Source: an uncultured virus (IMG/VR IMGVR_UViG_3300005259_000041)
Lineage: Duplodnaviria; Heunggongvirae; Uroviricota; Caudoviricetes
Reading direction: 5' to 3' (one strand)
DNA: 64,000 bases
IMG/VR virus record: IMGVR_UViG_3300005259_000041
Shown: piece after piece, positions 1,063-25,626 of the stretch
Layout of the letters: every line of letters begins with the position of its first letter
How positions within the stretch are numbered: position 1 is the stretch's first letter
Notes under the pieces: generated by a model
Seen by the model: the letters and a program-made list of their open reading frames with translations, nothing else
The model's database searches: none
What the model was told of the DNA's origin: nothing
Program-made: the position numbers and the translations under genes

Positions 1063-1137
1063 GCTCTCGTCACCTAACGGCCTGGTAGCAGCCTTTTAAG
1101 CTGACATAAATAGGTTCGACTCCTATCGAGAGCACCA
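1063..1137 (+). tRNA. tRNA-Lys(UUU)
   Basis: GCTCTCG/CGAGAGC acceptor, loop CTTTTAA, T-loop TTCGACT, CCA. Confidence 0.85.
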
Positions 1138-1143
1138 AAATTT

Positions 1144-1218
1144 GCCTCCGTGGCTCAATGTCAGAGCAATCGGCTCTTACCCGATAGGTTCCTGGTTCAA
1201 GTCCAGGCGGTGGCACCA
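1144..1218 (+). tRNA. tRNA-Lys(CUU)
   Basis: ATCGG-CTCTTAC-CCGAT anticodon arm, T-loop TTCAAGT, CCA. Confidence 0.9.
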
Positions 1219-1222
1219 ACAT

Positions 1223-1300
1223 CTCCGTTTAGCTCAGTCTGGCTGGAGCACATGCTTTGGGAGCATGGGGCCGGGGGTTCAAATCCCTCAACGGAGACCA
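1223..1300 (+). tRNA. tRNA-Pro(UGG)
   Basis: CATGC-TTTGGGA-GCATG, T-loop TTCAAAT, CCA. Confidence 0.93.
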
Positions 1301-1303
1301 AAT

Positions 1304-1379
1304 GTCCTTATAGCTCAATGTATAGAGCGTCTGGCTACGGACCAGAAGGTTGGGGGTTAGAGTCCTCCTAGGGACACCA
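1304..1379 (+). tRNA. tRNA-Arg(ACG), T-loop TTAGAGT
   Basis: TCTGG-CTACGGA-CCAGA, full cloverleaf, CCA. Confidence 0.9.
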
Positions 1380-1382
1380 AAT

Positions 1383-1470
1383 GGCGAGGCGGCAGCGACG
1401 GGGAGCTGTAAGTGGCTGTAACCCACTCGTTCTTAGAACTTAGGGAGTTCGAATCTCTCCCTCGCCACCA
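1383..1470 (+). tRNA. tRNA-Tyr(GUA)
   Basis: AGTGG-CTGTAAC-CCACT, long variable arm, T-loop TTCGAAT, CCA. Confidence 0.9.
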
Positions 1471-1473
1471 AAT

Positions 1474-1559
1474 GCCTAGGTCGCCTAGTGCTCGATGGCA
1501 CCGCACTTGTAATGCGGCGACGAAAGTCCACGGGAGTTGAAATCTCCCCCTAGGCTCCA
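1474..1559 (+). tRNA. tRNA-Thr(UGU) with long variable arm, T-loop TTGAAAT
   Basis: GCCTAGG/CCTAGGC acceptor, CCGCA-CTTGTAA-TGCGG, GAC-GAAA-GTC extra arm, CCA. Confidence 0.85.
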
Positions 1560-1561
1560 AT

Positions 1562-1649
1562 GCGGGGCTGGATCATTGGCTGATCACTTGCCTTCCAAGC
1601 AAGCAGGCCGCAGGGCCGTAAGGGAGTTCGATTCTCCTGCCCCGCTCCA
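1562..1649 (+). tRNA. tRNA-Gly(UCC) with long variable arm
   Basis: GCGGGGC/GCCCCGC acceptor, CTTGC-CTTCCAA-GCAAG, GGCC-GCAG-GGCC extra arm, U73, CCA. Confidence 0.85.
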
Positions 1650-1654
1650 TTTGT

Positions 1655-1731
1655 GTACCAGAGGCTGAAGCGTTCGAGGCGCTCGCCTGCAAAGCGAGAT
1701 GAAGTCCGTTGGAGTCGGACCTGGTACTCCA
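1655..1731 (+). tRNA. tRNA-Cys(GCA), T-loop TTGGAGT
   Basis: GTACCAG/CTGGTAC acceptor, CTCGC-CTGCAAA-GCGAG, U73, CCA. Confidence 0.85.
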
Positions 1732-1740
1732 AAAATTTGA

Positions 1741-1817
1741 TGGGGAGTCGCGTAGCGGCCTAGCGCATCGGTCTCTGACACCGACTATCGAGAGTTCGAA
1801 TCTCTCCTCCCCTGCCA
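1741..1817 (+). tRNA. tRNA-Gln(CUG)
   Basis: TCGGT-CTCTGAC-ACCGA, T-loop TTCGAAT, U1-U72 mismatch, G73, CCA. Confidence 0.9.
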
Positions 1818-1818
1818 T

Positions 1819-1893
1819 GCGGGCGTAGCTCAGAAGTAGAGCGTCGCGTTGCCAACGCGAAGGTCGAGATAGCATAATTCTTCGCCCGCTCCA
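1819..1893 (+). tRNA. tRNA-Gly(GCC) with degenerate T-arm
   Basis: GCGGGCG/CGCCCGC acceptor, TCGCG-TTGCCAA-CGCGA, T-arm GAGAT-AGCATAA-TTCTT, D-loop lacks GG, CCA. Confidence 0.8.
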
Positions 1894-1898
1894 AATGT

Positions 1899-1973
1899 TG
1901 ATCCCTGGTGGACCAGAGGACACACCCGGCTTTGACCCGGGAGAACAGGGGCCGGCACCCTGGGGATCTGCCA
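1899..1973 (+). tRNA. tRNA-Gln(UUG), T-loop GCCGGCA
   Basis: CCCGG-CTTTGAC-CCGGG, T-stem CAGGG/CCCTG, U1-U72 mismatch, CCA. Confidence 0.8.
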
Positions 1974-1977
1974 ATTG

Positions 1978-2051
1978 GCCGTGTTAGTTCAGTGACAGAA
2001 TACCTCCTTGGTAAGGAGGGGACGATGGTCTGATTCCATCACATGGCTCCA
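1978..2051 (+). tRNA. tRNA-Thr(GGU), T-loop TCTGATT
   Basis: CCTCC-TTGGTAA-GGAGG, T-stem GATGG/CCATC, CCA. Confidence 0.85.
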
Positions 2052-2069
2052 ACAAAGGGAGGACGGAAA

Positions 2070-2477
2070 ATGAGCTACAAGGATCAGAAGTATAAGGTTG
2101 CAATCATTGGAACGATTGATAGTGATTATTGTTATGAGTGTGGGGGAAACGATGTGGTTGTTGCCTCTATTACTGACTGGGAAGAGTTAACCTGGGTTGA
2201 GGTTGAGGCATTACGGAACGGCCTTAATAGGCTGGGCAATTCCGCTCTACACTATCGCGTAGTCTTTCAGCCTACCGAACAGAAGCAGCTTATTATTGAC
2301 TCTATGGCGAAGGGCAAGAAGATGGCCGAAGCAGCCCTCAAGGCAGCCGCAAAGGACGCCGCTGCCGCTAAGGCTAAGAAAGAAGCCCGTGAAGCCAAGA
2401 AGAAGGCTAAGACTGAAGCCGCTCGCAGGGAAGAGTATGAGCGCCTAAAGGCGGAATTTGAGCAGAATAAGAAGTAA
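2070..2477 (+). CDS. hypothetical protein with Ala/Lys-rich coiled-coil C-terminus
   Basis: GGGAGG RBS before ATG 2070 (the track start 2043 lies inside a tRNA). Confidence 0.8.
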   Translation: MSYKDQKYKVAIIGTIDSDYCYECGGNDVVVASITDWEELTWVEVEALRNGLNRLGNSALHYRVVFQPTEQKQLIIDSMAKGKKMAEAALKAAAKDAAAAKAKKEAREAKKKAKTEAARREEYERLKAEFEQNKK

Positions 2478-2529
2478 GGGCCTGTGCATTGAGCTTCGTC
2501 GCAAGACGGCTTTATGCACAGACGTCCCA
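2478..2529 (+). ncRNA. hairpin RNA GGGCCTGT...AGACGTCCC(A), copy 1
   Basis: CTGTGCAT/ATGCACAG stem, CGTC-GCAA-GACG cap, ends CCA; terminal motif recurs at 3410-3468. Confidence 0.5.
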
Positions 2530-2532
2530 TTT

Positions 2533-2608
2533 GTCCTCATGGCGAAATGTATATCGCAAGAGTTTCCTAAACTCTAGATTGGGGGTTAGAGTCCCTCTGA
2601 GGACACCA
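2533..2608 (+). tRNA. tRNA-Arg(CCU), T-loop TTAGAGT
   Basis: GTCCTCA/TGAGGAC acceptor, AGAGT-TTCCTAA-ACTCT, CCA. Confidence 0.88.
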
Positions 2609-2611
2609 AAT

Positions 2612-2694
2612 GTCAGTGTAGACGAGGTGGTCTTCTAAACCACTATTCGTAATTGGATCTGAAAATGTGGGTTCAAGTCCCACCGCTGACACCA
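2612..2694 (+). tRNA. tRNA-Arg(UCU)-like, lacking a D-arm, with long variable region
   Basis: GTCAGTG/CGCTGAC acceptor, 8-nt linker, GTGGT-CTTCTAA-ACCAC, T-arm GTGGG-TTCAAGT-CCCAC, CCA. Confidence 0.7.
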
Positions 2695-3209
2695 TATGTT
2701 TTATGAAATTTGGCAAAATTAATAGCATGTATCTCATGATGGCAATTGGAACATAAGAGTCTGCATTTATCAAGTTCAGCTTTAATTTAACTGTTAAGTT
2801 TTCGGCTTTTAACTTCTTGTATATTAAATTCCTTTGCTGTTGGGTCTATATGATGAAAACATAAAGCTGCAATGTTTTTATGATAACCACAAATTTCACA
2901 TTTTCCACCTTTATAGTTAACGTAAGATAATTTTGAAAAATATTGACGAAGGTTGGCTGATAATATACAGCATTTTTGACATGGAGATTTATATACTCCA
3001 GCTTGTTTATGAAATTCTTCAATGTTTTTTATTTCTCCACATTTTCCACATTTCTTAGTATTGGGGGGTATGTCTATTATTTTTTTTGTATTATGTCTTT
3101 TGAATGGGCTACATTGTAAACAATATTTTCTGGACGCTAAGTTATGAACTTTTCCATTGATTTTGATATATGTTTTAAATGATTTCGAACATTTTTCACA
3201 TTTTTTCAT
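2673..3209 (-). pseudogene. HNH homing endonuclease interrupted by an in-frame TAA (2787-2789)
   Basis: CxxC clusters and CEICGY..FHHIDP; same frame continues IKAELDKCRLLCSNCHHEIH after the TAA; AT-rich; GGAGG before ATG 3209. Confidence 0.8.
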
Positions 3210-3244
3210 AGAATCCTCCATTAGCTTAAGGGTAGAACTTAAAA

Positions 3245-3252
3245 TATTAATA
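3245..3252 (-). promoter_or_regulatory. TATTAATA motif upstream of the HNH gene
   Basis: Minus-strand context AGCTATTAATATTTTA matches the + strand copy at 6748-6763. Confidence 0.55.
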
Positions 3253-3271
3253 GCTAAGCTAAATTAAAATT

Positions 3272-3348
3272 GCAGGCTTCGTATAGTTGCACTAGTACGC
3301 TAGTTTCGTAAACTAGAAACGAAGGATGGTAGCCTTCAGCCTGCTCCA
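3272..3348 (+). tRNA. tRNA-Thr(CGU), T-loop ATGGTAG
   Basis: GCAGGCT/AGCCTGC acceptor, CTAGT-TTCGTAA-ACTAG, T-stem GAAGG/CCTTC, CCA. Confidence 0.8.
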
Positions 3349-3358
3349 GAGCCTATTG

Positions 3359-3496
3359 CCGAGAAAGCGCTGCCCTCTGACGGTGGAAAGCTTCGGTCTT
3401 AGATGTCTCGGGCCTGTTTGATGGGGCGCGGGCCTTTTAGCCCGAATGTCGCATTGAATAGACGTCCCTAAACGCACGGTGATGAGCCGTGCGTTT
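3359..3496 (+). ncRNA. structured region including copy 2 of the GGGCCTGT...AGACGTCCC hairpin (3410-3468)
   Basis: CCGAGA/TCTCGG, CTGTTTGATG/CATTGAATAG and AAACGCACGG/CCGTGCGTTT stems. Confidence 0.45.
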
Positions 3497-3523
3497 GACT
3501 TTTATGGCCTTTCGTCTTATATT
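3495..3523 (+). promoter_or_regulatory. sigma70-type promoter
   Basis: TTGACT-N17-TATATT, hexamers identical to the promoter at 854. Confidence 0.8.
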
Positions 3524-3562
3524 GTTTCGTGGACAATTGGTCCGCAGAAAAGGATAATTAAA

Positions 3563-5188
3563 ATGGCTATTTCTGATGATGTTGTACTTGATTTAGATGA
3601 AATCGATGAGCCTTGTGAGCCGCCGTGTACTCCGGGCCGAAATCACTCTTCCGATGCTTGTGAGCCCGTGGATCACGTCGGAGCAGTATCTTTAGCTCCC
3701 GGCCTGACCTCCTCTGGTAAGCATATTTCTATGGTGGACTTTGTTCCTACCGTTCTGGGTATTACGAGAGAGGAGCAGTTTCATAACTATCTCAAAGACA
3801 TTAATGACACTACTGATGTTTCCAATTTCGCTAGTCTGGAAACGCAAATTAATTTTTGGCGCGCCTTTGTCAATTCCAGCCGTCTTCAGATTACCTCTTT
3901 CGAGTCTATTAAAGACGGCAATAAAATGATTCTAAGATATCTTATCGATACGAAAACCTTTACCGAAAAGTGTCCCTTCTCTTCGATGACGGTCGATTTG
4001 TATTCCACCAATCTTACTAATATGGCCTACATCAATGATTTTGTGGTGGATAATTATGCCGACGACGAGAATGAGAAGAAGGTGGAGTTTGACGGAGCCA
4101 CTATCCATCCTTTGGGTGTGGATGATTGCACTTCCATCGATTTGGCTTTTGCGAAAATTACTACGTCCGACGGGAAAATCGTATATGTCGGTCATCACGT
4201 AAGTCGCGCTCTAGACCGGGCTGTGGCGAACGATTATCTATGGTTTGATAATCAGGAAGTCGCCCTGAATGTGAGCGACATTATTATCGGCATCTGGAAA
4301 GCCTGTCGTGATAAAGAGCGGACGGTTTGTATCGTAGAGGGTGAGAACGAAGTCGTCCGTGACCAAGAGGGCTTCTTTATGCGCGACACTTATTTGTCCA
4401 TTGTTAATGATATCAAGACGTTTTTGGATTCTAAGTCTCTGTTTCGTGAAGCTGGTATTGCCTACCGTAGAGGGTATTTGATGTATGGTCCTCCCGGCAA
4501 CGGTAAGAGTCAGCTGGCTAGATATCTATTCAATGAGTTTAAAGAGTTTAATTTATATGCCTATTATCATACTGAGCGTCGCAGAGGTGGGTCTGTTGAT
4601 GAGCGCCTAGAGAGAACCTTTGCCATGGCCAGAGATAATGCTCCTAGCTTCTTGCTCCTAGAGGATTTAGACCGTATCGTCAGCCATGGGTCTGCCTCTA
4701 AGGAAGTTATCACCATCGATAGGCTGTTTAATATGATGGATGGCGTCTGCTCTCCTGAAGGTATCGTATTACTTGCCACCTGTAACCACCCAGAGAACCT
4801 TGACATGGCTCTACTTGGTCGCCCTGGCCGATTTGATAGGGTAATCGAAGTCGGGCATCCTGATCGAGCTGAGCGCGAATCTCTTATTGCGTACTTATGT
4901 TCCTGTGGTGAGAAGTATAAGCTTAATGCTAAAGAACATAAGGCCGTGGCGCAGCTTGCCGATGCGACCGAAAACCTTAGCATGGCTTATGTGAAAGAGC
5001 TTTATTCTAGAGCGTTCCTTAAGAGCCTTAATGCTGGCCGTAGAACTCTGCCTATTAGCCCGCTTATTCTTTTGGACCTAGTGCGTGAAATTGTGGATGA
5101 AAGCAGAAATGTAGACGTGATTGCTCGCCGTACTGGATTTCGTACTGGCTATGAAGCTTCCGCTAGGGGTGAGGACCGCACGTCATGA
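3563..5188 (+). CDS. AAA+ ATPase (classical clade, BCS1-like)
   Basis: Walker A GPPGNGKS, Walker B LLLEDLD, SRH RPGRFD; start at ATG 3563 after AAGGA. Confidence 0.9.
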   Translation: MAISDDVVLDLDEIDEPCEPPCTPGRNHSSDACEPVDHVGAVSLAPGLTSSGKHISMVDFVPTVLGITREEQFHNYLKDINDTTDVSNFASLETQINFWRAFVNSSRLQITSFESIKDGNKMILRYLIDTKTFTEKCPFSSMTVDLYSTNLTNMAYINDFVVDNYADDENEKKVEFDGATIHPLGVDDCTSIDLAFAKITTSDGKIVYVGHHVSRALDRAVANDYLWFDNQEVALNVSDIIIGIWKACRDKERTVCIVEGENEVVRDQEGFFMRDTYLSIVNDIKTFLDSKSLFREAGIAYRRGYLMYGPPGNGKSQLARYLFNEFKEFNLYAYYHTERRRGGSVDERLERTFAMARDNAPSFLLLEDLDRIVSHGSASKEVITIDRLFNMMDGVCSPEGIVLLATCNHPENLDMALLGRPGRFDRVIEVGHPDRAERESLIAYLCSCGEKYKLNAKEHKAVAQLADATENLSMAYVKELYSRAFLKSLNAGRRTLPISPLILLDLVREIVDESRNVDVIARRTGFRTGYEASARGEDRTS

Positions 5189-5200
5189 TGAGGAAAGACT

Positions 5201-6748
5201 ATGACTACTTTAATTGTGTTACTGTCCATATGGTGTATTGGGAATCTAGTATTATTGGTGTATTCATTAAATGTCGGTAAGGATGTCGCGCTCCAAAGAG
5301 AACAGCTTATTCAAGAGGGAATAGATCAGTATGATAAACTGCATAAGGAACAAGATGAGTTTCATGAAGAAGAGAAAAAGTTTCATGCTAAGCTTGAGCT
5401 GTTGACGCTTCAAGCTCTTCGCTTATCTGAGCAGGAAAACAATCTTAAATCATATGGGGGCCAGTTAAACAAGGCCAAGTCAGAGTTAATTGACAAGGCT
5501 GGCATTTTAAACGTTAAAGAGCTAGCCTTAGGCGCAAGAGAACAAGACCTGTCCATCAAAGAGGCTTCTCTGGAGCACTTGGCTGAAGAATACAGGGCCA
5601 GGGTTGAGCGTGCCGCTGGTATGTCCTTGTCTGAGGGGAAGGCAATTGTCTTAGCTAGCGCAAAGAAAGAGACCGAGCGTGAAGCTGCGTTGTTTTTACG
5701 TGATGCCAAAGAGGAAGCCCAGCGCCTAGCTGACATAGAGGCACAGAGAATTTTAACTTTAGCTATTGAGCGAGTCGCCATTTCTCAAGCCCCATTGAAG
5801 TTAACTTCTCAGGTGGTGATTGCTGACGAAAACTTCAGGGGAAAGCTTATCGGACATGAAGGTAAGAACATTAGGCTGCTTGAAGAGTTAGCTGGCGTTC
5901 AAGTGCTTACTAATAATGAGGATGCAAAAGTCTTAACAGTGTCAGCCTTCAATCCAATTTCTAGGGAGCTGTGTAGGCGCACTATAGAAGAGTTAGCCTC
6001 CATTAACTTTGTCAATCCCAAGAAGATTAAAGATGTGTATGAAAAACATTCCAATGAGCTAGAAAAAGAAGTTCTTAAAACTGGCAGGGACACATTTAGG
6101 AATTTGGGTTTGTCCATGCCCAATGCCGAAATAGCTAAGCTACTGGGCAAGCTTAAGTATCGTACTTCCTATGGACAAAATGTTCTCAATCATTCTATCG
6201 AAGTTGCTCAGCTTTGTGGTGCTTTAGCCGGAGAGTTGAAGTTGGACGTAAGGCTAGCTAAGAGAGCTGGTCTGTTGCACGATATTGGAAAGGCAATTGA
6301 TATCGAGAAAGAGGGCACTCACCCTGAATTGGGCGGCATCGCCGCTAGGCGGTACGGAGAGCACGAGGTAGTTGTTAATGCCATCGAGAGCCACCATGAA
6401 GACATTGAGGTTATTAATCTTATCTCTATTTTGGTCGCAATTTGTGATGGAATTTCTGGGTCTAGACCTGGAGCCAGAAGAAATAACCTTGCTGATTATG
6501 TGAAAAGAATTGAGGCTTTAGAGGGAATAGCCCTGTCATTCCAAGGGGTTACCCAAGCTACAGCGCTTCAGAGTGGCAGGGATCTGAGGGTGGCCGTTAG
6601 CGCTGATGAGATAGATGACGTTATGTCTGCCCAGTTAGCCAATTCCATTTCTAGGCAAATTCATGACCAAATGGACTATCCCGGCAAAATCAAGGTGACG
6701 GTTATCAGAGAGAAGAGGGTAGCTGTAGTGGCAGGACAGTCACGCTAA
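5201..6748 (+). CDS. rny: ribonuclease Y
   Basis: N-terminal TM helix, coiled coil, KH (GKLIGHEGKNIR), RTSYGQNVLNH, HD motif LLHDIGKA, SRPGARR, YPGKIKVTVIRE. Confidence 0.95.
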   Translation: MTTLIVLLSIWCIGNLVLLVYSLNVGKDVALQREQLIQEGIDQYDKLHKEQDEFHEEEKKFHAKLELLTLQALRLSEQENNLKSYGGQLNKAKSELIDKAGILNVKELALGAREQDLSIKEASLEHLAEEYRARVERAAGMSLSEGKAIVLASAKKETEREAALFLRDAKEEAQRLADIEAQRILTLAIERVAISQAPLKLTSQVVIADENFRGKLIGHEGKNIRLLEELAGVQVLTNNEDAKVLTVSAFNPISRELCRRTIEELASINFVNPKKIKDVYEKHSNELEKEVLKTGRDTFRNLGLSMPNAEIAKLLGKLKYRTSYGQNVLNHSIEVAQLCGALAGELKLDVRLAKRAGLLHDIGKAIDIEKEGTHPELGGIAARRYGEHEVVVNAIESHHEDIEVINLISILVAICDGISGSRPGARRNNLADYVKRIEALEGIALSFQGVTQATALQSGRDLRVAVSADEIDDVMSAQLANSISRQIHDQMDYPGKIKVTVIREKRVAVVAGQSR

Positions 6749-13042: not shown

Positions 13043-16000
13043 ATGACAGAATCAATTCATTCGCTAAATCAAAAACGGGCCACTTTCATATTTGCTTCAG
13101 CCCCAACGGCTAATCATGATTCCGCAGACACCGTGGGAATCGGTATTACTTTTGGGGCGGGGGACATCTGGCTTAATACGACTGGATCTAGGTCTTATTA
13201 TATATGCGTAGACGATACCCCCACGGTGGCCGTTTGGCGCGAATTGGTGCCAACTACTGGAGTGTCATCTCCTCTGGTTTTGGGGTCTAATACGATTACA
13301 ACAACGGGGCTTATTACCGGCGAAGTGCCCATCAATGTCGGCACATATGGCCTTTTAACTTATACCGACCACCATGACGGTACTCTTACCTATGCTGCCT
13401 CCGAAGGGCATTTTAAAACTAATGCCTATGGGACTGGTATCATTGTAAAATTAACTGTTCCAGAGAAAAAGTTAACTCCCACCGACGAAACAGTTAATTA
13501 TGTTTATGCTGCTTATAATTCTGGGGTCCCAGAATATCGAATTAATACTGATAAATCTCTTGTCCATGATTCCGACACGTATCTTATCGGGGTGGTTTAT
13601 CGTGAAGATACGAGATTGCGGGTGAAAAATTTTAGCATTCTCGGTTCTAATATGACCAACCGAATGAATATGAGAATGCTGTTGACAGATGAAAGATTTA
13701 TTCGTGAGTCTGGATTAGGTATTACCGAAACGTCAGATGGAGTCACGAGTATTACGGTGTCTGCAGGTGGTAGTGGATATACCACTACACCAAACGTGGT
13801 TATTGCGGACCCAGTGTCAGGCACAACAGCTACGGCTGTAGCGGTCTTATCTGGCGATGCAGTAGATTATATAGACATCACCAACATGGGATCTGGTTAT
13901 GTAGCTGGTAGCACTCCATCGGTCACTATAGACCCGCCTGGCACTGGCGTTCAGGCCACGGCAGATTCTTATGTTGGTCGCGGTGTTAATCTAGCTAGCG
14001 GTGTGGGTTGGGTCGCAGCGGACAGGGTTACTTTTGCGCCGTGTTATTCTGGTATTACATCTGGCTCTAATGCAACTCTTTTGGAGTTTTGGTATCATGA
14101 CGCTGGCGGTAATTGGGTATCGGAGTACACAACTATATTCAATAACACTCAATATGATGACCCGGCTACTGGACTGCAAAGCTTAGCCGGCGGAGAATAC
14201 GGTGTTGTTTGGATTTTTAGGGAAATGTCAGCTCAGATTCCGCCAGAAATATTTATGGTACTTGGCAATGACTCATATTTGTCTTCGGGCGCCGCAGAAG
14301 CCGCAGCTGTGCCCTCATTGCCGCCAGTTTTGCCTGACATGGCAGTACTAGTTGGAAGAATAGTTATTAAAAAAAGCGAACACACGGCCACCTCTATCGT
14401 CTCCTCATTTGTTACTACGCTGGCAACCTCTGGCGCCGCATCAGATCACTCCAGCCTAACCCATTTAGACTATGTCTCGGCTGGGCACACGGGTTTTGCT
14501 GGCACAAACGTGGCCAACACATTTGCTATTGGACAAAACATTAACTCCAACGCAGTTGGCAATACCCCACTTACAGTAAAGGGGTGGAGCGGTCAAACTG
14601 CTCCATTAATAAATGCAACAGACAGTTCTGACGCTACTAAGGTCGCAGCTTATGCTGATGGCACTTTGGATGCCGTTAAAGTTGGCATTCTTGAGGGTGG
14701 AACCACCCCTACCTATTATCACTATTTTCAAGGTGGAGATTTAAGCGGAGCGGACGTTACTTATACTTTACCCGTTGCTCTGCCAGCGGGCAATGGTTAT
14801 GTTTTGGCGTCGACGACTGGCGGTGTGATGTCATGGATTCCTGCGGGCGTTGGGACAGTCACTAGTGTTGGACTCGCTCTGCCAGCAGAATTTACTGTAA
14901 CCAATTCGCCCGTGACGGGAAATGGCTCTCTTACGGGAGCCTGGGCAGCTCAAGATATTAATAAGGTGTTTGCTTCGCCTGCTACTGGAACACCAGGGGT
15001 GCCTGGCTTTAGAGCCCTGGTAGCTAATGATATTCCTAGCCTTTCCTATGAACCGGCAAATGCCTTATTAACAGCAATAAGTGGGCTGTCCTCCGCAGGG
15101 ATATTGGTTAGATTAACCGCCTCTAGTGCCATAGCCCGTAGTATTCAGGGCACGACTGATGTAATTGCTGTATCGAACGGCGATGGGGTGGCTAGCAATC
15201 CAATTATTAATATTGCTAGCACATACGTTGGTCAAACATCTATTACCACATTGGGTACGATTACAACTGGTACATGGAGTGGTGGGGCTATTTCAGCATC
15301 TAAGGGCGGAACGGGCGTAGACTCTAGTGGCTACACTGGTATTATGAAAGTGACCTCTGGCACCTGGAGCACGGCCACTGCAGATTCTGATTATGTGACG
15401 CCAAGCGGTAGTGTCACATTGACTAACAAGTCATTGGGTGATTCTACCACTTTCTTTACAAACGTAACAAAACCGACCAAGAGGATGAAGTTCCAGCTTT
15501 CTAGTATTACGGAGAATAATACTAGGACGTTAACTATCCAAGATGCAGATGGCACCGTTGCTTTGCTTGGAGACCTTGCCGGTTATCAGCCTGCGAATTC
15601 AGATTTGACTGCAATTGCAGCCTTAAGTACTACTGGTTTTATTACCCGTACGGCAGCGGGGTCCATGGCCACTCGAACTATCGGGGGCACGACCTCACGC
15701 ATCGCCGTTACCTATGGCGATGGGGTCGCCGCAGCGCCCATTATAGACATCGATAGCAGTTACGCCGGCCAGAACACTATTACCACTGTCGGTACGGTCG
15801 GTACGGGCGTGTGGCAGGGCACTTCCATTAAGGCTAATTATTTGCAGGCTTCCCCAGCCGATCTTGGTGATGCTGATGTTACTGTAGACCTCTCCAACAG
15901 CCACTCTGGTAGGGTAACAAATCTCACTATGGATGGCGATGTTACTGCATTAGGAGTGAAGTTAATCTCCACTTCTTATTCTACTTTAATTCAGTCGGGT

Positions 16001-17908
16001 TCTCTTTCTGGTAACCTTACGTTTACCCTTCCTGCGTCGGCGGGGACATCTGGACAGGTTCTCACCACAGATGGAAACAGTCCAGCCACTCTTAGCTGGA
16101 CTAACGGGGGTACCTCTGGAACCTCTGGCCTCAATGGCACGTCTGGTGAAAATGGAACGTCTGGTCTAAACGGGACCTCTGGATCTTCTGGTACGAGCGG
16201 TACCACCGGCTCCTCTGGAACCACTGGTAGCAGTGGGTCGTCAGGGACCTCTGGCTCTAGTGGTACCTCTGGTTCTAGTGGTTCATCAGGCACCTCTGGT
16301 GAAAATGGGACATCCGGCTCCGATGGATCGTCTGGCACTTCGGGTTCTTCTGGGACCTCTGGTGAGTCTGGCACATCTGGGTCGTCTGGGACTTCTGGCT
16401 CCTCTGGCACTTCGGGTTCTTCGGGGACCTCTGGTGAGTCTGGCACATCTGGGTCGTCTGGCACGACAGGTTCAGCTGGTACATCTGGAACGGATGGGTT
16501 TGTCGGTTCCTCTGGCTCGGCTGGTACTTCTGGAAGCTCTGGAACGTCTGGCTCCGCAGGGACTAGCGGAGTTGGCACCTCTGGCACCACTGGCTCAGCT
16601 GGCACTTCTGGCACAGATGGAGCAGCAGGTTCTTCTGGTACCTCCGGTCTCAATGGCACGTCTGGCGTAAATGGTACGTCTGGTGTTAATGGAACCTCTG
16701 GCACGAGTGGATACTCTGGGACTGCTGGAGAGGCTGGTACCTCAGGCTCCTCTGGTTCCTCGGGTACTTCTGGCTCTTCAGGTACCACAGGATTTTCTGG
16801 TACTACTGGGTTATCTGGAACATCGGGGACGTCGGCGAACAATGGGACTTCTGGGTCCTCTGGTACAACCGGCTCTTCTGGCACAACGGGGTCTAGTGGA
16901 ACGACTGGCTCTTCGGGAACATCTGGGAGTGGAGGTTCTTCTGGTACGTCTGGGTCCGGTGGTTCTTCAGGCACATCTGGAATTAATGGTACATCTGGAA
17001 TTAATGGCACATCTGGCTCTGGTGGTTCCTCTGGCACGACCGGCAGCGCCGGTACATCTGGTTCGGGTGGTTCGTCAGGTACATCTGGCTCTGGCGGTTC
17101 CTCTGGCACTACCGGCAGCGCCGGTACATCTGGCTCTGGTGGTTCCTCTGGCACGACCGGCAGCGCCGGTACATCTGGCAGTGGAGGTTCCTCTGGGACA
17201 TCCGGCTCTGGTGGTTCCTCTGGCACCACCGGTTCGGCGGGCACTTCTGGTTCTGGCGGTTCCTCTGGTACAGCTGGCAGCGCTGGTACTTCTGGAAGCG
17301 GGGGCTCCTCTGGAACGTCTGGTATTAATGGGACTTCGGGTGTAAATGGTACCTCTGGAGTTAATGGTACTTCTGGAATAAGTGGGACCTCTGGCACTGC
17401 GGGGTCTGCGGGTTCTTCTGGCACCTCTGGCGCGGGTTCTTCTGGCACCTCTGGTTCCTCTGGTACAACAGGTTCTGCTGGTACGGCCGGATCTTCGGGA
17501 ACGTCTGGGGCGGGGTTAACAGTCAATTCTAAAGTGGTTACAGACGGCACTGCTACCGATGTGGTGTATATTTCTTTATCGGCTGCAGAGATGTGTGGCG
17601 GTATTATTCAATTTAATATTCAGGTAACAGATGGAACGGATTTCCAATCTCACACGGGAGAAGTGACATTTGCCGCTGTACGCAAAGTGAACACAGTAAC
17701 TTCAGAAATTTTGGAGTTGAGGCAGTCTGAAAGCTATGCCGCTTCGTCTGGCACACTAACTGACGTCTGGACGGTAGTTGCAGATACGGGTAACAATAGG
17801 ATTAAGATACAGTTGAATGCTAATACTAGTTTGGTAGCCTCAGCTAACTATCCGGTAGTAAAATACTCTGTCGCTGAGTTTACTGGTAAAACCATAACCC
17901 CTCAGTAA
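13043..17908 (+). CDS. fibre protein (1621 aa) with Ser/Thr collagen-like (Gly-X-Y)n region
   Basis: Fibre-like repeats (GGSGY, YxGQxxITTxGT) and a ~470 aa G-T-S/G-S-S tract before a compact C-terminal domain. Confidence 0.8.
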   Translation: MTESIHSLNQKRATFIFASAPTANHDSADTVGIGITFGAGDIWLNTTGSRSYYICVDDTPTVAVWRELVPTTGVSSPLVLGSNTITTTGLITGEVPINVGTYGLLTYTDHHDGTLTYAASEGHFKTNAYGTGIIVKLTVPEKKLTPTDETVNYVYAAYNSGVPEYRINTDKSLVHDSDTYLIGVVYREDTRLRVKNFSILGSNMTNRMNMRMLLTDERFIRESGLGITETSDGVTSITVSAGGSGYTTTPNVVIADPVSGTTATAVAVLSGDAVDYIDITNMGSGYVAGSTPSVTIDPPGTGVQATADSYVGRGVNLASGVGWVAADRVTFAPCYSGITSGSNATLLEFWYHDAGGNWVSEYTTIFNNTQYDDPATGLQSLAGGEYGVVWIFREMSAQIPPEIFMVLGNDSYLSSGAAEAAAVPSLPPVLPDMAVLVGRIVIKKSEHTATSIVSSFVTTLATSGAASDHSSLTHLDYVSAGHTGFAGTNVANTFAIGQNINSNAVGNTPLTVKGWSGQTAPLINATDSSDATKVAAYADGTLDAVKVGILEGGTTPTYYHYFQGGDLSGADVTYTLPVALPAGNGYVLASTTGGVMSWIPAGVGTVTSVGLALPAEFTVTNSPVTGNGSLTGAWAAQDINKVFASPATGTPGVPGFRALVANDIPSLSYEPANALLTAISGLSSAGILVRLTASSAIARSIQGTTDVIAVSNGDGVASNPIINIASTYVGQTSITTLGTITTGTWSGGAISASKGGTGVDSSGYTGIMKVTSGTWSTATADSDYVTPSGSVTLTNKSLGDSTTFFTNVTKPTKRMKFQLSSITENNTRTLTIQDADGTVALLGDLAGYQPANSDLTAIAALSTTGFITRTAAGSMATRTIGGTTSRIAVTYGDGVAAAPIIDIDSSYAGQNTITTVGTVGTGVWQGTSIKANYLQASPADLGDADVTVDLSNSHSGRVTNLTMDGDVTALGVKLISTSYSTLIQSGSLSGNLTFTLPASAGTSGQVLTTDGNSPATLSWTNGGTSGTSGLNGTSGENGTSGLNGTSGSSGTSGTTGSSGTTGSSGSSGTSGSSGTSGSSGSSGTSGENGTSGSDGSSGTSGSSGTSGESGTSGSSGTSGSSGTSGSSGTSGESGTSGSSGTTGSAGTSGTDGFVGSSGSAGTSGSSGTSGSAGTSGVGTSGTTGSAGTSGTDGAAGSSGTSGLNGTSGVNGTSGVNGTSGTSGYSGTAGEAGTSGSSGSSGTSGSSGTTGFSGTTGLSGTSGTSANNGTSGSSGTTGSSGTTGSSGTTGSSGTSGSGGSSGTSGSGGSSGTSGINGTSGINGTSGSGGSSGTTGSAGTSGSGGSSGTSGSGGSSGTTGSAGTSGSGGSSGTTGSAGTSGSGGSSGTSGSGGSSGTTGSAGTSGSGGSSGTAGSAGTSGSGGSSGTSGINGTSGVNGTSGVNGTSGISGTSGTAGSAGSSGTSGAGSSGTSGSSGTTGSAGTAGSSGTSGAGLTVNSKVVTDGTATDVVYISLSAAEMCGGIIQFNIQVTDGTDFQSHTGEVTFAAVRKVNTVTSEILELRQSESYAASSGTLTDVWTVVADTGNNRIKIQLNANTSLVASANYPVVKYSVAEFTGKTITPQ
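16106..17515 (+). repeat. coding triplet repeat (G-T-S/G-S-S)n
   Basis: 9-nt periodicity with synonymous divergence. Confidence 0.9.
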
Positions 17909-20516: not shown

Positions 20517-21532
20517 ATGAGATGTCCTCTGGGGAATAACGTATCAGATATGATTACTACGCCACTAGGTAATCAGCTATTATTTTCTCTTTACGATGGC
20601 GCTAAGGTTGAAATAATCGGCGCCAAGAAAGCCACTTACACTGTAAGCTTCATAGACGCAGATAATGGTTTTCTTTTCTATAAAACAACTATTCCAACTG
20701 GGCATTGGGCCTCCCCGTCACCGAAGTATTTCATTAGGTGGCATGTGATAGTTGAGGAAGAGGGGGTTGGCATATATGATTATGTTATTGACCTTAAGGA
20801 CAAGAAAATCTGGATAGGCTTAGACAGCGCGTCTCTTGGCGATTCCGTAGCGTGGCTTCCCTATGCAGAGGAATTCAGAAAGAGACACCAATGTAAGGTA
20901 CATGTTTCTACGTTTAGGAACTCTCTTTTCGAGGGCATGTATCCAAATCTCACCTTTAAGTCTACCGATGTTGATAATACCGAGGGCGGGTATTATGCAA
21001 TATATCTGATTGGTGCTTTCGACAATAATTATAGTAGAAACAAGAATAATTGGCGAACTGTTCCATTGCAGCAAGTGGCATCTGATATTTTGGGGTTAAA
21101 ATATACTGAAGTCAGGCCAAGGGTTATGAGATCCGATAAACCCCGCCCCATCTCAGATAAATATGTCTGCATTGCAGAGTTTTCCACCATTCAGAGTAAG
21201 TTCTGGAATTATCCTGGCGGATGGCAGCAAATTGTAGATTATTTAAATTCTTTGGGATTTAAGGTAATGGCTGTTAGTAAAGAGCAATCTTCTCTCTCCA
21301 ATGTTATCTACATGAATGATAAGCCCATTGAGGAAACCATACGCAACATTCAACATGCAGAATTTATGATTACTATTGGCACTGGTCTTGCATGGGTAAC
21401 GTGGGGACTTAACGTTCCCCTGATTCTTATCTCTGGGTTCAGCGACCCCATAAGTGAAATGAAAGATTGTGTGCGCATTCATAATCCTAATGTGTGCCAT
21501 GGGTGCTATAATGATACGAACTTTCCTTTTGA
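20517..21532 (+). CDS. TibC/BAHT-like (GT9-related) protein O-glycosyltransferase; 3' end lost in N-gap, may be fused to next ORF
   Basis: SPKYFIRW, SLGDSVAWLPYAEEFRKRHQC, KFWNYPGGW, TGLAWVTW, LISGFS, VCHGCYND resemble autotransporter heptosyltransferases. Confidence 0.75.
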
Positions 21533-21567
21533 NNNNNNNNNNNNNNNNNNNNNNNNNNNNNNNNNNN

Positions 21568-24500
21568 GCAAAGCGACAATTTGCGACGCATAGCAATGCC
21601 CCTGGTGATGCTAATATTGTGAGGGACGTAGTTGTAAAAGATGAATACAGGTTGGCGGAAATCTCTAGGACTATAACTCCAAATGTCATTGTGGACGTAG
21701 GCGGCCATATTGGCAGCTTTGGCGTTAAGGCCAAATCTATTTGGCCTGAAGCCCGACTCATTGCATTCGAGCCGACGGCTTCCTCCTTCGCACTCTATCA
21801 AGAAAATTTAAAGCGATTTAACTGCGAGGGGTTGGTGCGTCAGGTTGCCATATCTTATGCCAATAAATCTTGCATTGCGGACGACTCTGATTGTTTTGGC
21901 AGCGGCATTTTAATTGACGAAAACGAAATAGATGTAGATGGTAAAATTTTAACGGACGCTAAGGTTTTTTCGGGAAAGAAACACATCATTACCGAGAGAA
22001 ATGTTATCACCAAAACCTTAGAAGACGTCATGTTAGAGCATGATCTAGACAACATAGATTTATTAAAGTTAGATTGTGAGGGTAGTGAAGTAGATATTCT
22101 TAAAAATATGTCTGCTAAAACTGCATCTAAAATCAATTGTATAGTTGGAGAATTTCACTGCTCTGGGGGATTTGAAGAATTTAGGGCTCTTCTGCTTTCT
22201 AAGTTCCCATTGCATCAAGTGTCATTAGTAAAAAGCATGAATGAACACGTAGGTTCTTTCGTGGCACGACCAAGAAAGGCACTTAAAATTAAGCTGGTGC
22301 ATATACTATCTCGCCCAGAGACAACGGTGGAAAGGCGCTCTATAAATAGCCTGTCGCAGCTTAAGCAGTTTGGAATTGAATATGTCCAGCAAGTTAACGG
22401 CTATGAAACAAAGCTACCCGCAATAGAGCCGAAACATCCGACAGGGGTGTGGGGGCAACCATTAAAACCTGGATACTATGGCGTGTGGAAGGCCAACCGC
22501 AGGTCAATCGAAGAGGAGTTTCATGACGATGTAGATTTTCTGGTGACATGCGAGAGGGATGTCACTTTAGCAATTCCTCCCGAAGAATGTTATCAGAAAA
22601 TGCTCAGATGTATGTATGCCGCCCTCGACGCTGGTGTGGACTATCTAAGTTTTGGTTATAAGAATTCGTTTATGCACGCTTATCAGGTTGTCCACTCTAA
22701 GGAGCTGGAAAGTATTAATGATGAGATGTTTATTACTGATCAGATTATCGGCTTACAGTGTATAGCTTTTCCTCGTAGCACGCGGGACTTTTTGTTCCAT
22801 GTTTTTAAAACTGAAAAGTGGTATGCGTCTGATATTTGGTTTAATGAAGTGTTCCGTGCGGCAAACAAAAAATTAGCCATAGTTAGAGAAGCCTGTGTCA
22901 TTCATGATGACGAAGGGGACTCGGTTATAGACCAGGGACACAAGCCAATCATTGGGGCTGTGACTGACAATAGAAATCGTCCCGGGGGATTCATCATTAA
23001 CACTAGGACTGGTGCAGCGGAAAGCGGAGATTTGCATGTCGTGGGAGAAATTTTAACTAAAGATGGCTATGAGTTGGACAATATTAAGCGCATTTTGCCT
23101 ACATGTCCAAAAGCGATAGTGGATGTTGGTGGGCATATTGGTTCTTTTGGTTTAAAGGCTAAGTCTTTATGGCCTTCAGCTAAACTGGTCGCATATGAAC
23201 CAAATGTAGAGTCTTGCGAACTGTACAAACAAAATATGAACAGTAATGCGTTTTCATATTACACTGTGTACAATGAGGCGGTTTCATATGAGCAAGACAA
23301 GACTATCTTAGTCGAAGACGTTACGTCAACGGATGGTGGAGTGCTTACTAATAGGGCACTGTTCAATGAGGCCACCGGTCGCCTGGCATTAGATAGGTTG
23401 AATCCACTTGCGAAGTATCGTGTTGGGCGCAGCAACGTCCCATCGTTAACAATCGAACAGCTAATGAGTAGAGATAATTTAGAGTATATAGACATTCTAA
23501 AGTTAGATTGCGAGGGCAGCGAAATTGAAATCTTGCGTCAAATGCTACCAGAGACAGCTCAAAAAATAGGTCTTATTGTTGGTGAATTTCATTATGCTGG
23601 CGGGTATACTGAGTTCGTCAGTCTTTTGAAACAAAAATTTCCTAACTTCCTAGTCATTCCTCTCACCTCCCCTGGTCCGTGCATTGGGCAGTTTATGGCA
23701 GCTCCCCCAGAAATTATAAACAATATCCATACAGCTAAATCGACAGCCATTAAGACATCCGCCACCCGCGCTTTAGTGACTGGGGGCGCGGGTTTTATTG
23801 GTTCCCATTTAACCGACCATTTAGTCAGGTCTGGATATGAGGTGGCGGTCTTAGATAATTTGTCATCTGAATCGAGTAATATCCAAAATGTAAACGCTAT
23901 GGCTAAGTTTTATCGAGGAGACACCACTTCCAAAAAAGAAGTAGATAATATATTTGATGAGTTTAGGCCGGATATAGTTTTCCATTTGGCCGCTAAAATA
24001 TCTGTACCAGAATCTTTCGTGAATCCGGCTGAAACCACTGAAGTTAACGTAGCTGGCTCTTCAAGGGTTCTTGAGGCATCAAAAAGATGCGGTGTAAAAA
24101 GATTTGTATTTATGTCTTCTGGCGGTGCCCTTTATGGTGAGACAGCTCAGCCTGCCAATGAAGAGGCTCCCACTCGCCCAGTGAGTCCATATGGCGTTAG
24201 TAAACTTTGTTTTGAAAATTTGTTAATGCTTGGCGACAATGGAAGTATGGACGTTGTTATTTTGAGACCATCCAACGTTTATGGTCCCAGGCAGCAATCA
24301 GGAGTCATATCGGTGTTTATGAAGCGGCTTGCAAAGGGCCTTATGCTAGATATGTATGGAGAGGAATCGAATAACTCTGTGCGAGATTATGTTTTTGTGA
24401 GTGATGTTGTTTCTGCGCTGGCCATGTCAATAACTCTATCTCCCGGGATTTATAATGTTTCGACTGGTGCTCAAACCACTATACGCGAGCTGGTTGCTAG

Positions 24501-25626
24501 AGTCTCCTCTAAATTGGGCGCGTCCCCAAAAATTAACATGCTTGCGTCTAGGGGAGATGTTAAAAAAAGCGTATTAGACTCTTCTAAGCTGATGTCTCAC
24601 GGCTGGAAACCAGAGGTGTCTCTACCAGAAGGAATCTCTTTAATGTGCCCAGCTAAAACCAAGGCCCCAGATGAGACAAAGATATTGTTTTTCGCTCCAC
24701 ATTGTAGCACTGGGGGTATGCCGCAGTATATGCTTTGGTGTGTTACAAATGCTATTAGATCTGGGCATTGTGTTGAGGTTGTTGAGTTCAGCGACATCTC
24801 TCCTAGTTTTGTCGTGCAGAAAAACAAAATTAAGCAATTATGTCCATTTCATTCTCTGGGCGCAGATAAGTTGGGAGAGATATCTGATATTATTCGCCGG
24901 TTTAATCCAGATATTATACATTTGCAAGAGGCCCCAGAGATGTGGATGCCAGACTCCATGGCGACATATCTTTTCAGAAAGGACAAGACCTATAAAATTA
25001 TCGAGACGTCTCATACCGCTGGTTTTGACGTGAAGGGCAAAAAATATTTACCAGATATGTTTTCCTTTGCCTCTCAGTATCATCTGAAGCAATATGAACA
25101 TATCTTGAAGCTTGGAATACCATATGTGGTGTCTGAATATATTATAGACCGCAAACCTAGGCCGGATAGGGCTGAGTCCTTACGGGCTTTAGGCTTAGAC
25201 CCCCACAAGAAACACGTTCTTAATGTTGGCTTATTTACTCCGGGTAAAAATCAAGGGCAGATTTTCAGGATTGCTAAAATGTTGCCCGATGTCATGTTTC
25301 ACTTTGTGGGGAATCAAGCAGATAATTTTGCTCATTACTGGCAGCCACTTATGCAGGATAAGCCAGACAACTGTGTCGTGTGGGGCGAACGTAATGATGT
25401 GGATGCTTTTTACTCTGCCATGGATTTATTTTTGTTTACCTCTCTTATTGAACTGAAGCCCATAGTCATCAAAGAGGCTATGGCTTGGGGTATGCCCATA
25501 CTTATGTATAACTTGCCTGAATATGAGGGGTTGTATAATATGTTCCCCAATGTTTCTTTCTTGACAAAGCAGGACGATGAATATGTTTGCGATGCCGTTT
25601 CGCGGGCTATTAATAGTTTTAGTTGA
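21568..25626 (+). CDS. multidomain glycan-modifying protein: FkbM-like methyltransferase x2, GT-like central domain, NAD-dependent epimerase, GT4-like glycosyltransferase
   Basis: VDVGGHIGSF...LKLDCEGSE twice; VTGGAGFIGS and YGVSK; PHCSTGGMPQY...FTSLIELKPIVIKEA; start hidden in N-gap. Confidence 0.85.
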   Translation, partial: AKRQFATHSNAPGDANIVRDVVVKDEYRLAEISRTITPNVIVDVGGHIGSFGVKAKSIWPEARLIAFEPTASSFALYQENLKRFNCEGLVRQVAISYANKSCIADDSDCFGSGILIDENEIDVDGKILTDAKVFSGKKHIITERNVITKTLEDVMLEHDLDNIDLLKLDCEGSEVDILKNMSAKTASKINCIVGEFHCSGGFEEFRALLLSKFPLHQVSLVKSMNEHVGSFVARPRKALKIKLVHILSRPETTVERRSINSLSQLKQFGIEYVQQVNGYETKLPAIEPKHPTGVWGQPLKPGYYGVWKANRRSIEEEFHDDVDFLVTCERDVTLAIPPEECYQKMLRCMYAALDAGVDYLSFGYKNSFMHAYQVVHSKELESINDEMFITDQIIGLQCIAFPRSTRDFLFHVFKTEKWYASDIWFNEVFRAANKKLAIVREACVIHDDEGDSVIDQGHKPIIGAVTDNRNRPGGFIINTRTGAAESGDLHVVGEILTKDGYELDNIKRILPTCPKAIVDVGGHIGSFGLKAKSLWPSAKLVAYEPNVESCELYKQNMNSNAFSYYTVYNEAVSYEQDKTILVEDVTSTDGGVLTNRALFNEATGRLALDRLNPLAKYRVGRSNVPSLTIEQLMSRDNLEYIDILKLDCEGSEIEILRQMLPETAQKIGLIVGEFHYAGGYTEFVSLLKQKFPNFLVIPLTSPGPCIGQFMAAPPEIINNIHTAKSTAIKTSATRALVTGGAGFIGSHLTDHLVRSGYEVAVLDNLSSESSNIQNVNAMAKFYRGDTTSKKEVDNIFDEFRPDIVFHLAAKISVPESFVNPAETTEVNVAGSSRVLEASKRCGVKRFVFMSSGGALYGETAQPANEEAPTRPVSPYGVSKLCFENLLMLGDNGSMDVVILRPSNVYGPRQQSGVISVFMKRLAKGLMLDMYGEESNNSVRDYVFVSDVVSALAMSITLSPGIYNVSTGAQTTIRELVARVSSKLGASPKINMLASRGDVKKSVLDSSKLMSHGWKPEVSLPEGISLMCPAKTKAPDETKILFFAPHCSTGGMPQYMLWCVTNAIRSGHCVEVVEFSDISPSFVVQKNKIKQLCPFHSLGADKLGEISDIIRRFNPDIIHLQEAPEMWMPDSMATYLFRKDKTYKIIETSHTAGFDVKGKKYLPDMFSFASQYHLKQYEHILKLGIPYVVSEYIIDRKPRPDRAESLRALGLDPHKKHVLNVGLFTPGKNQGQIFRIAKMLPDVMFHFVGNQADNFAHYWQPLMQDKPDNCVVWGERNDVDAFYSAMDLFLFTSLIELKPIVIKEAMAWGMPILMYNLPEYEGLYNMFPNVSFLTKQDDEYVCDAVSRAINSFS

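Follow-up and report, generated by a model that had tools for sequence, protein, structure and literature searches.

The 64,000-nt stretch of uncultured phage DNA analysed here (the window; IMG/VR record IMGVR_UViG_3300005259_000041) carries a rewired tRNA-Arg(UCU) of 80 nt plus an encoded CCA at positions 2612-2694 on the plus strand. We consider this gene to be, quite probably, a functional elongator tRNA-Arg(UCU) with a non-cloverleaf design. Comparison with relatives shows that a long-range helix stands in for the D hairpin and places the anticodon arm inside one composite arm. Judging from its invariant bases, a bulge in this helix may take over the work of the D loop by docking its GG on the T loop, and the bulge A would substitute for A20. 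Together with C35, the bulge A would let the host arginyl-tRNA synthetase (ArgRS) charge the tRNA, which would then read AGA, the commonest arginine codon of the phage and one that the host probably decodes poorly.

The gene and its surroundings

The window belongs to a large tailed phage, with genes for a tail sheath, a tail tube or tube-initiator, a collar and an M23 peptidase. The rewired gene lies in a plus-strand tRNA array (approximately 1063-3348), directly after a canonical tRNA-Arg(CCU) at 2533-2608. Just downstream of the array are an AAA ATPase gene (3479-5188) and an RNase Y-like gene with RNase_Y_N, KH and HD domains (5201-6748). The window also has three giant ORFs, at 13043-17908, 21469-25626 and 33246-36479, whose products are a 1621-aa collagen-repeat protein, a 1385-aa fusion of FkbM methyltransferase, NAD-dependent epimerase-dehydratase and glycosyltransferase, and a protein that combines PKD repeats with a Hint domain. 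A search for sequencing runs matching positions 1060-2700 turned up DNA runs, each with a small share, and no RNA run.

Extra variable-arm hairpins are normally limited to Ser, Leu and Tyr tRNAs. Within the array they are present in a tRNA-Thr(UGU) at 1474-1559 and a tRNA-Gly(UCC) at 1562-1649, as insertions of 11 and 15 nt relative to Rfam, and the related contigs L005 and L365 encode Gln, Thr, Lys, Met and Ile tRNAs of 86-94 nt. Two further genes of the array, at 1063-1134 and 1819-1890, are tRNAs by Rfam (49.6 and 49.2 bits) that ARAGORN missed; one is a tRNA-Lys(UUU), and in the other a GCC anticodon is combined with a T loop that is degenerate. A CUA-anticodon tRNA, named "Pyl" by ARAGORN and a possible amber suppressor, is found in the related record G001 at about 14708-14780 (L364:3709-3784).

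Against the Rfam tRNA model RF00005 the rewired gene scores 37.7 bits, compared with a gathering score of 29 (E 4.3e-07 when 116 nt are searched and 1e-05 for 2.7 kb), in an alignment that deletes 15 D-arm positions, leaving 5 nt, and adds 20 nt to the variable region. A local D-arm hairpin is absent between the acceptor and anticodon stems, where there are only 8 nt, so the gene does not form a cloverleaf. ARAGORN called 10 tRNAs in the window and the rewired gene was not among them. A covariance model built from relatives (R1, described below) gives the window copy 94.8 bits (E 8e-25) and the next best site of the 64-kb window 18.6 bits, and the match is therefore far beyond chance. At the same locus the Rfam tmRNA models returned only noise (7.3 bits), and RNAfold uses the 5' linker to lengthen the anticodon helix (-26 kcal/mol, z -2.25). 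Genes of this design are usually overlooked or misnamed by gene finders. Several relatives have been mislabelled by gene finders or in deposited records: L221:2464-2546, L012:1465-1545, L016:1251-1331, L298:585-663 and L295:2488-2569 bear the labels tRNA-Thr(ggt), tRNA-Asp(atc), tRNA-???, tRNA-Val(aac) and tRNA-OTHER. Elsewhere members are unannotated or covered by "hypothetical protein" or HNH ORFs.

An HNH homing-endonuclease gene on the minus strand (2695-3221; phrog_2255, E 1e-28) abuts the tRNA at its 3' end but is separate from it, and an AT-rich island of 28-30% GC starts right after the CCA. The HNH gene has an in-frame TAA at 2787-2789, and its frame continues through the remaining HNH motif into the 3' part of the tRNA; the gene is either a pseudogene or read through. 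Two relatives, L005 (from the 332,730-bp record G001) and L006, have all 80 nt unchanged and lack the HNH gene, and their similarity to the window stops at 2693. The insertion therefore did not damage the tRNA, and the HNH gene is a later, unrelated insertion. In Pseudomonas phage PA11, too, an HNH ORF runs over one end of the rewired tRNA, there the 5' end.

Secondary structure and extent of the family

The acceptor stem is formed by nt 1-7 (2612-2618) and 2684-2690; all seven pairs covary, and 98-99% of cells are paired in relatives. It is followed by U8 and A9 (2619-2620), which read UA in all 63 distinct members that were first seen by scanning with a free 5' half, and by nt 10-14 (2621-2625), the 5' side of the long-range "D-stem" helix; their partners are nt 47-48 (2658-2659) and nt 36-38 (2647-2649), and the pairs covary in an unbiased set of 42 sequences. 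Nucleotide 15 (2626), comparable to the 26:44 position, lies opposite nt 33, as G.U in the window copy. The anticodon arm (2627-2643) has a 5-bp stem in which five of five pairs covary and the loop CUUCUAA, with U33, the anticodon UCU at 2634-2636 and a purine at position 37. A 3-nt linker follows (nt 33-35 of the gene, 2644-2646), whose U33 and A34 are at least 90% conserved in alignment A2. The 3' strand of the long-range helix then comes in two parts, nt 36-38 (2647-2649), pairing with nt 12-14, and nt 47-48 (2658-2659), pairing with nt 10-11. Between them is the 8-nt D-loop-like bulge UAAUUGGA (nt 39-46, 2650-2657), in which U39, A40, A41, G44, G45 and A46 are invariant in alignments A1 and A2. 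The connector UGAAAAU (nt 49-55, 2660-2666) leads to the T stem; its U49 and G50 are invariant, also in 22 of 22 members first seen where the scan left them free, and in A1 conservation is 90% or more at A52-A54 and U55.

The T arm (2667-2683), with a 5-bp stem in which four of five pairs covary and the loop UUCAAGU, contains the T-loop motif and fits the Rfam tRNA model. By the window letters and the same model, the gene closes with the 3' strand of the acceptor (2684-2690), a discriminator A (2691) and CCA (2692-2694). The acceptor/T-stem configuration is 7/5. The preliminary description had recognized intact acceptor, anticodon and T arms and CCA, all of which are found at 2612-2694 (+), and had reported a D arm replaced by 8 nt and a variable region of 23 nt; these figures agree with our counts between the stems, 8 nt from acceptor to anticodon stem (2619-2626) and 23 nt from anticodon to T arm (2644-2666).

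Read outward from the junction, the composite arm consists of the pairs 10-11/47-48, the bulge in the 3' strand, the pairs 12-14/36-38, a small internal loop and the anticodon stem. The partners of nt 10-14 lie 3' of the anticodon arm, which is therefore nested in the "D stem". On this comparative evidence the core is a three-way junction of acceptor, composite arm and T arm instead of a four-way one. The same fold can also be viewed as a normal four-pair D stem, G10-N-C-N, in which the anticodon arm substitutes for the D loop, whose sequence has shifted to the 3' strand. Since the bulge sits mid-helix, at a distance of two to four pairs from the junction, an exact copy of the canonical L-shaped core cannot form.

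The pairing was assessed in a scan that fixed the anticodon loop, UAA..GGA, UGAAAAU and GUUC and left positions 8-15, 33-38 and 47-48 free. Among the 47 loci recovered there were 42 distinct sequences, and every one had the rewired design. The structural claim rests on these 42 sequences because an earlier set of 73 was biased, having been pre-filtered for at least two of the three pairs in 12-14/36-38. Among the 42, pair 10:48 is G-C in 27, A-U in 13, C-G in one and U-A in one; pair 11:47 is C-G in 23, U-A in 10, A-U in seven and U.U in two; pair 12:38 is C-G throughout (42/42); and pair 13:37 is G-C in 33, A-U in four, C-G in three and U-A in two. Pair 14:36 is A-U in 12, C-G in seven, G-C in six, U-A in two, U.G in one and A.A in two, and its A.C mismatch in 12 of the 42 speaks against the proposed design. 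Pairs 10:48, 11:47, 13:37 and 14:36 thus show three to five standard pair types apiece. Position 15:33 is G.U in 25, A-U in eight, U.U in six and something else in three.

In the ungapped alignment A2, 97.0% of cells are paired, against 60.7% in shuffles and 37-46% with the partners slid; covariation scores 0.981, against 0.231, and none of 500 shuffles reached as much. Changes on both sides are seen in 20 of 22 pairs, with compensatory changes in all five helices, and the unpaired core is invariant, its conservation exceeding that of the stems. The bulge has the consensus UAAYNGGA and a length of 7-10 nt across members. Folding the alignment de novo, RNAalifold gave the same helices and added U8.G50, A9-U49 and 15:33; U8, A9, U49 and G50 are without any variation, and their pairing is a prediction of RNAalifold. 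As a comparative result, we regard the rewired secondary structure as secure.

Two other interpretations of the locus can be set against these data. In the preliminary description the 8-nt linker was free and the D-loop-like sequence capped a local variable-arm hairpin, ATTC/GGAT (34-37/44-47). Its four pairs can indeed be drawn in the window copy, but across the 73 relatives only 52.1% of cells pair, and 63 of these sequences lack pair 34:47 and 51 lack pair 35:46; position 37 shifts to U or G with G44 unchanged, and position 47 covaries with 11 instead. That topology is extremely improbable. What survives of the earlier view is a rearranged architecture that is conserved, covaries and has an Arg anticodon, together with a D-loop-like GG followed by A in the 3' region, where GGA is conserved; the D-loop-like part is a bulge in a long-range helix and not the loop of a hairpin. 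It had also been allowed that the gene was a decayed tRNA, without homologs, whose D arm was lost perhaps through the neighbouring HNH insertion. Such decay would sit well with an HNH gene abutting the 3' end and with the lack of an ARAGORN call, but L005 and L006 carry an identical copy and no HNH gene, there are over 100 diverged homologs, and at least 107 distinct sequences of this type (type 1) combine compensatory changes in all five helices with an unpaired core conserved above the stems. These data refute the idea.

The family was collected by three pattern scans of IMG/VR, which gave 26 loci, 21 of them true (L009, L011, L025, L027 and L030 were dropped as chance matches); 64 loci, about half of them true; and at least 121 loci, many of them chance matches. 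A structure-agnostic parse of the loci yielded at least 107 distinct sequences with the same layout, an 8-nt linker and a 22-24-nt 3' region, on predicted viral contigs. The covariance model R1 was built from 73 of these (alignment A1), and its scores fall into groups, with members at 74 bits or above, variants at 45-60 and canonical tRNAs at 33 or below. A scan of the genomes of 185,579 species gave 23 loci, of which 14 were chance matches and nine were true, these being mostly tRNA-array contigs in MAGs, with two in Ochrobactrum/Brucella chromosomes; by this sampling the design appears essentially restricted to phage or mobile DNA.

A BLAST search with one member matched 516 INPHARED records at E up to 0.1 (raw matches; Vibrio 298, Salmonella 95, Escherichia 83), and a member or variant was present in 13 of the 15 named-phage records examined. 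Two matches, in Klebsiella phage BaqKoxi and in Aeromonas phage Akh-2, involve the T arm only and fall outside the family, the Akh-2 gene being a canonical tRNA with a UUC anticodon. With R1, members were found in Pseudomonas phage PA11 (47672-47751, 92.5 bits; 38.7 bits with the Rfam tRNA model), vB_PaeM_Ty (98 bits), Pseudomonas phage Boevelstad (86.6 bits), Maribacter phage Panino (80.8 bits, beneath an annotated "hypothetical protein"), Vibrio phage D260 (80.4 bits), Brevundimonas phage Bajun (two copies, one annotated as tRNA-Arg) and the uncultured 642-kb phage LR756502.

A sister type has a 7-nt linker, UAUCNNN, and, after the anticodon arm, an 8-nt linker CGUUAANN, three pairs, the bulge, GUA and U. 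A free scan for it gave 60 loci with 41 distinct sequences, in which pair 12:y is U-A in 28, A-U in eight and G-C in five, and pair 13:x is C-G in 35, U-A in three and G-C in three. It occurs, unannotated, in Felix O1 (AF320576, 25951-26029), in E. coli phage REP8 as "tRNA-OTHER", in Streptomyces phage Yaboi as "tRNA-Val(aac)" and in a Campylobacter phage record marked unverified. There are also shorter variants, mostly Arg(CCU), that keep the three-pair helix and the bulge and have a connector of 1-4 nt to the T stem (L008:1396-1469(-), L088:180-252(-), L007:476-550, L243:1464-1542 and L302:565-640); Vibrio phage 1.170.O and Agrobacterium phage Atu_ph04 are among their carriers.

Arginine identity and possible roles

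Scans that left the anticodon free recovered Arg anticodons in 61 of 61 distinct members (UCU 39, UCG 11, ACG 8, CCU 2, GCG 1), and a CCG anticodon occurs in phage Bajun. The bulge GGA is kept in 22 of 22 members first seen in a scan that left the bulge free. Rarer variants combine Ile anticodons (UAU, GAU) with the bulge GGU (L018:2581-2662, L058:345-423, L254 and L300:499-577). The identity set of bacterial ArgRS comprises A20 in the D loop, C35 and U/G36. GGA in the Arg members as opposed to GGU in the Ile variants would fit the A20 rule, and the window tRNA has both C35 and an Arg anticodon.

Codon usage is consistent with a need for such a tRNA. AGA is the commonest Arg codon in 34 ORFs of the window (199 of 762). 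PA11, at 44.8% GC, uses AGA for 184 of its 794 Arg codons (23.2%), and the rewired gene is its sole tRNA. The complete 332,730-bp relative G001 has 26 tRNA hits, and its homolog at 33383-33462 is a UCU tRNA; none of the 29 ARAGORN calls in the three G001 clusters holding those hits has a UCU anticodon. The ArgRS catalytic domain PF00750 was not found in G001, and a host enzyme would therefore have to charge the tRNA. Many arrays combine rewired and canonical Arg tRNAs with differing anticodons. L012 and L013 are exceptions, with a canonical tRNA-Arg(UCU) beside the rewired one, and this side-by-side pair argues for a specialised role there. For Felix O1, the 2010 genome paper noted that AGA is over-represented and that a tRNA for AGA "might have been expected" (PMC3185647).

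An elongator function has to be weighed against two other roles. One is that of a defence-evading spare or decoy, which keeps its Arg identity and whose altered core escapes or soaks up host tRNA nucleases or a tRNA-destroying enzyme of the phage. Two recent reports document that tRNAs are cleaved as a form of immunity and that phage tRNAs counteract this (10.1101/2025.02.04.636281, PMC12851939). The adjacent canonical and rewired tRNA-Arg(UCU) genes of L012 and L013, the near confinement of the design to phage or mobile DNA (nine true loci in the genomes of 185,579 species) and an RNA ligase gene about 300 nt upstream in phage Boevelstad point the same way. However, no tRNA-Arg-specific nuclease is linked here to these phages, and the anticodon loops of the rewired tRNAs are ordinary. 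Known anticodon nucleases act at the anticodon loop. Nor would a pure decoy require the complete range of Arg anticodons, fitted to what each array lacks, and in PA11 and G001, which have no other UCU tRNA, plain decoding suffices to explain retention. The tRNA-mimic decoy of the preliminary description is thus less likely than a working decoder, given the codon use, the sole UCU tRNA and the sole tRNA of PA11, and as the primary role we consider it quite improbable. Evasion can coexist with decoding, as the reason for keeping the design.

The other role is that of a tRNA-like RNA outside ribosomal decoding, which might for instance supply a transferase with arginine or serve as primer or regulator. 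The non-canonical fold leaves acceptance by EF-Tu and the ribosome putative, and PA11 encodes, by annotation, amidoligase and glutaminyl-transferase-like genes. Against this stand the tRNA-like constraint on the anticodon loop (U33, purine 37; Arg anticodons only, with Ile in variants), anticodons that complement the canonical tRNAs of each array, and the canonical 7/5 acceptor/T configuration and T loop; no dedicated co-occurring protein was seen. Such a function is highly improbable, and decoding by a working tRNA-Arg remains the reading that we favour. Under it, the design may have been kept as neutral inheritance from one ancestor or for escape from tRNA-directed nucleases.

Relation to known tRNAs and significance

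The rewired tRNA shares with canonical class I tRNA-Arg, such as the neighbouring tRNA-Arg(CCU) at 2533-2608, the 7-bp acceptor, the 5-bp anticodon stem with its 7-nt loop, and the 5-bp T stem with its UUCRANY loop, as well as U8, A9, a four-pair G10-N-C-N stem, a loop with GG then A, and an Arg anticodon. It differs in that the D stem has its 3' strand after the anticodon arm, as is also the case for the D-loop-like sequence, this strand being split by the loop, and in its three-way junction and conserved UGAAAAU connector to the T stem. A three-way junction is also known from the tRNA-like domain of tmRNA, where the acceptor, the T arm and a long helix meet and a reduced D-loop analogue contacts the T loop. 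tmRNA has no anticodon, carries its D analogue on the 5' side, is charged with alanine and depends on SmpB. The rewired tRNA therefore resembles tmRNA in its junction and is unlike it in having an anticodon and a D-loop analogue on the 3' side.

The D-armless mitochondrial tRNA-Ser of animals (human GCU, PMC9427863; Ascaris UCU, PMC7609411) likewise has no D hairpin and a short connector, and is still taken as an adaptor. These mitochondrial tRNAs are eroded and organellar, with a weakened or reshaped T arm, no contact between D loop and T loop, and co-evolved partner proteins; the rewired tRNA, in contrast, has a canonical T arm, a GG-bearing D-loop mimic, a covarying long-range helix in place of the D stem, a phage setting with bacterial translation and Arg identity. 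The synthetic D-arm-less "mini HisT" of evolved E. coli shows that lack of a D hairpin need not keep a tRNA from being used by a bacterial aminoacyl-tRNA synthetase, EF-Tu and ribosome (PMC11551756). That molecule is artificial, with bases 11-25 deleted and no replacement helix or D-loop mimic, and a pnp mutation was needed for its stability (PMC11551756). The allo-tRNAs, which have an 8/4 or 9/3 configuration (PMC5389517), are also non-standard tRNAs from metagenomes and from phages of some bacteria; they differ from other tRNAs in stem length and keep the cloverleaf order and the D arm, whereas the rewired tRNA is 7/5 with a changed order.

Full-text literature searches, whose coverage left out most subscription journals, found no description of the rewired design. 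The words "virus" and "phage" do not occur in a 2020 review of non-canonical tRNAs (PMC7609411), nor does "phage" in the tRNAscan-SE 2.0 paper. According to a 2024 paper, every bacterial tRNA known is a cloverleaf (PMC11551756). A natural and widespread exception in bacterial viruses, backed by covariation, would change that statement.

A broader proposal, tentative and on balance unlikely, is that the rewired tRNA represents a third structural class of elongator tRNA besides classes I and II, which unmodified ArgRS, EF-Tu and the ribosome would accept, and that phages ranging from Felix O1 and PA11 to genomes of 300-600 kb keep it since its altered core evades tRNA-directed host immunity or the phage's own attack on host tRNAs.

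On the comparative sequence evidence, the rewired tRNA-Arg is real and widespread, with carriers that would number in the hundreds of phages, and its function is probable. The design would test how far ArgRS, EF-Tu, RNase P and the ribosome tolerate departures in tRNA shape, for which cultured systems exist in PA11 and the Felix O1-like phages of E. coli K-12, and orthogonal tRNA design would gain a natural scaffold from it. Phage annotation is corrected for a gene that had been missed, hidden or mislabelled, and studies of phage codon usage and tRNAs that rely on ARAGORN or tRNAscan-SE would undercount Arg tRNAs and some Ile tRNAs. For Felix O1, the gap noted in 2010 would be closed by a tRNA for its over-used AGA codon.
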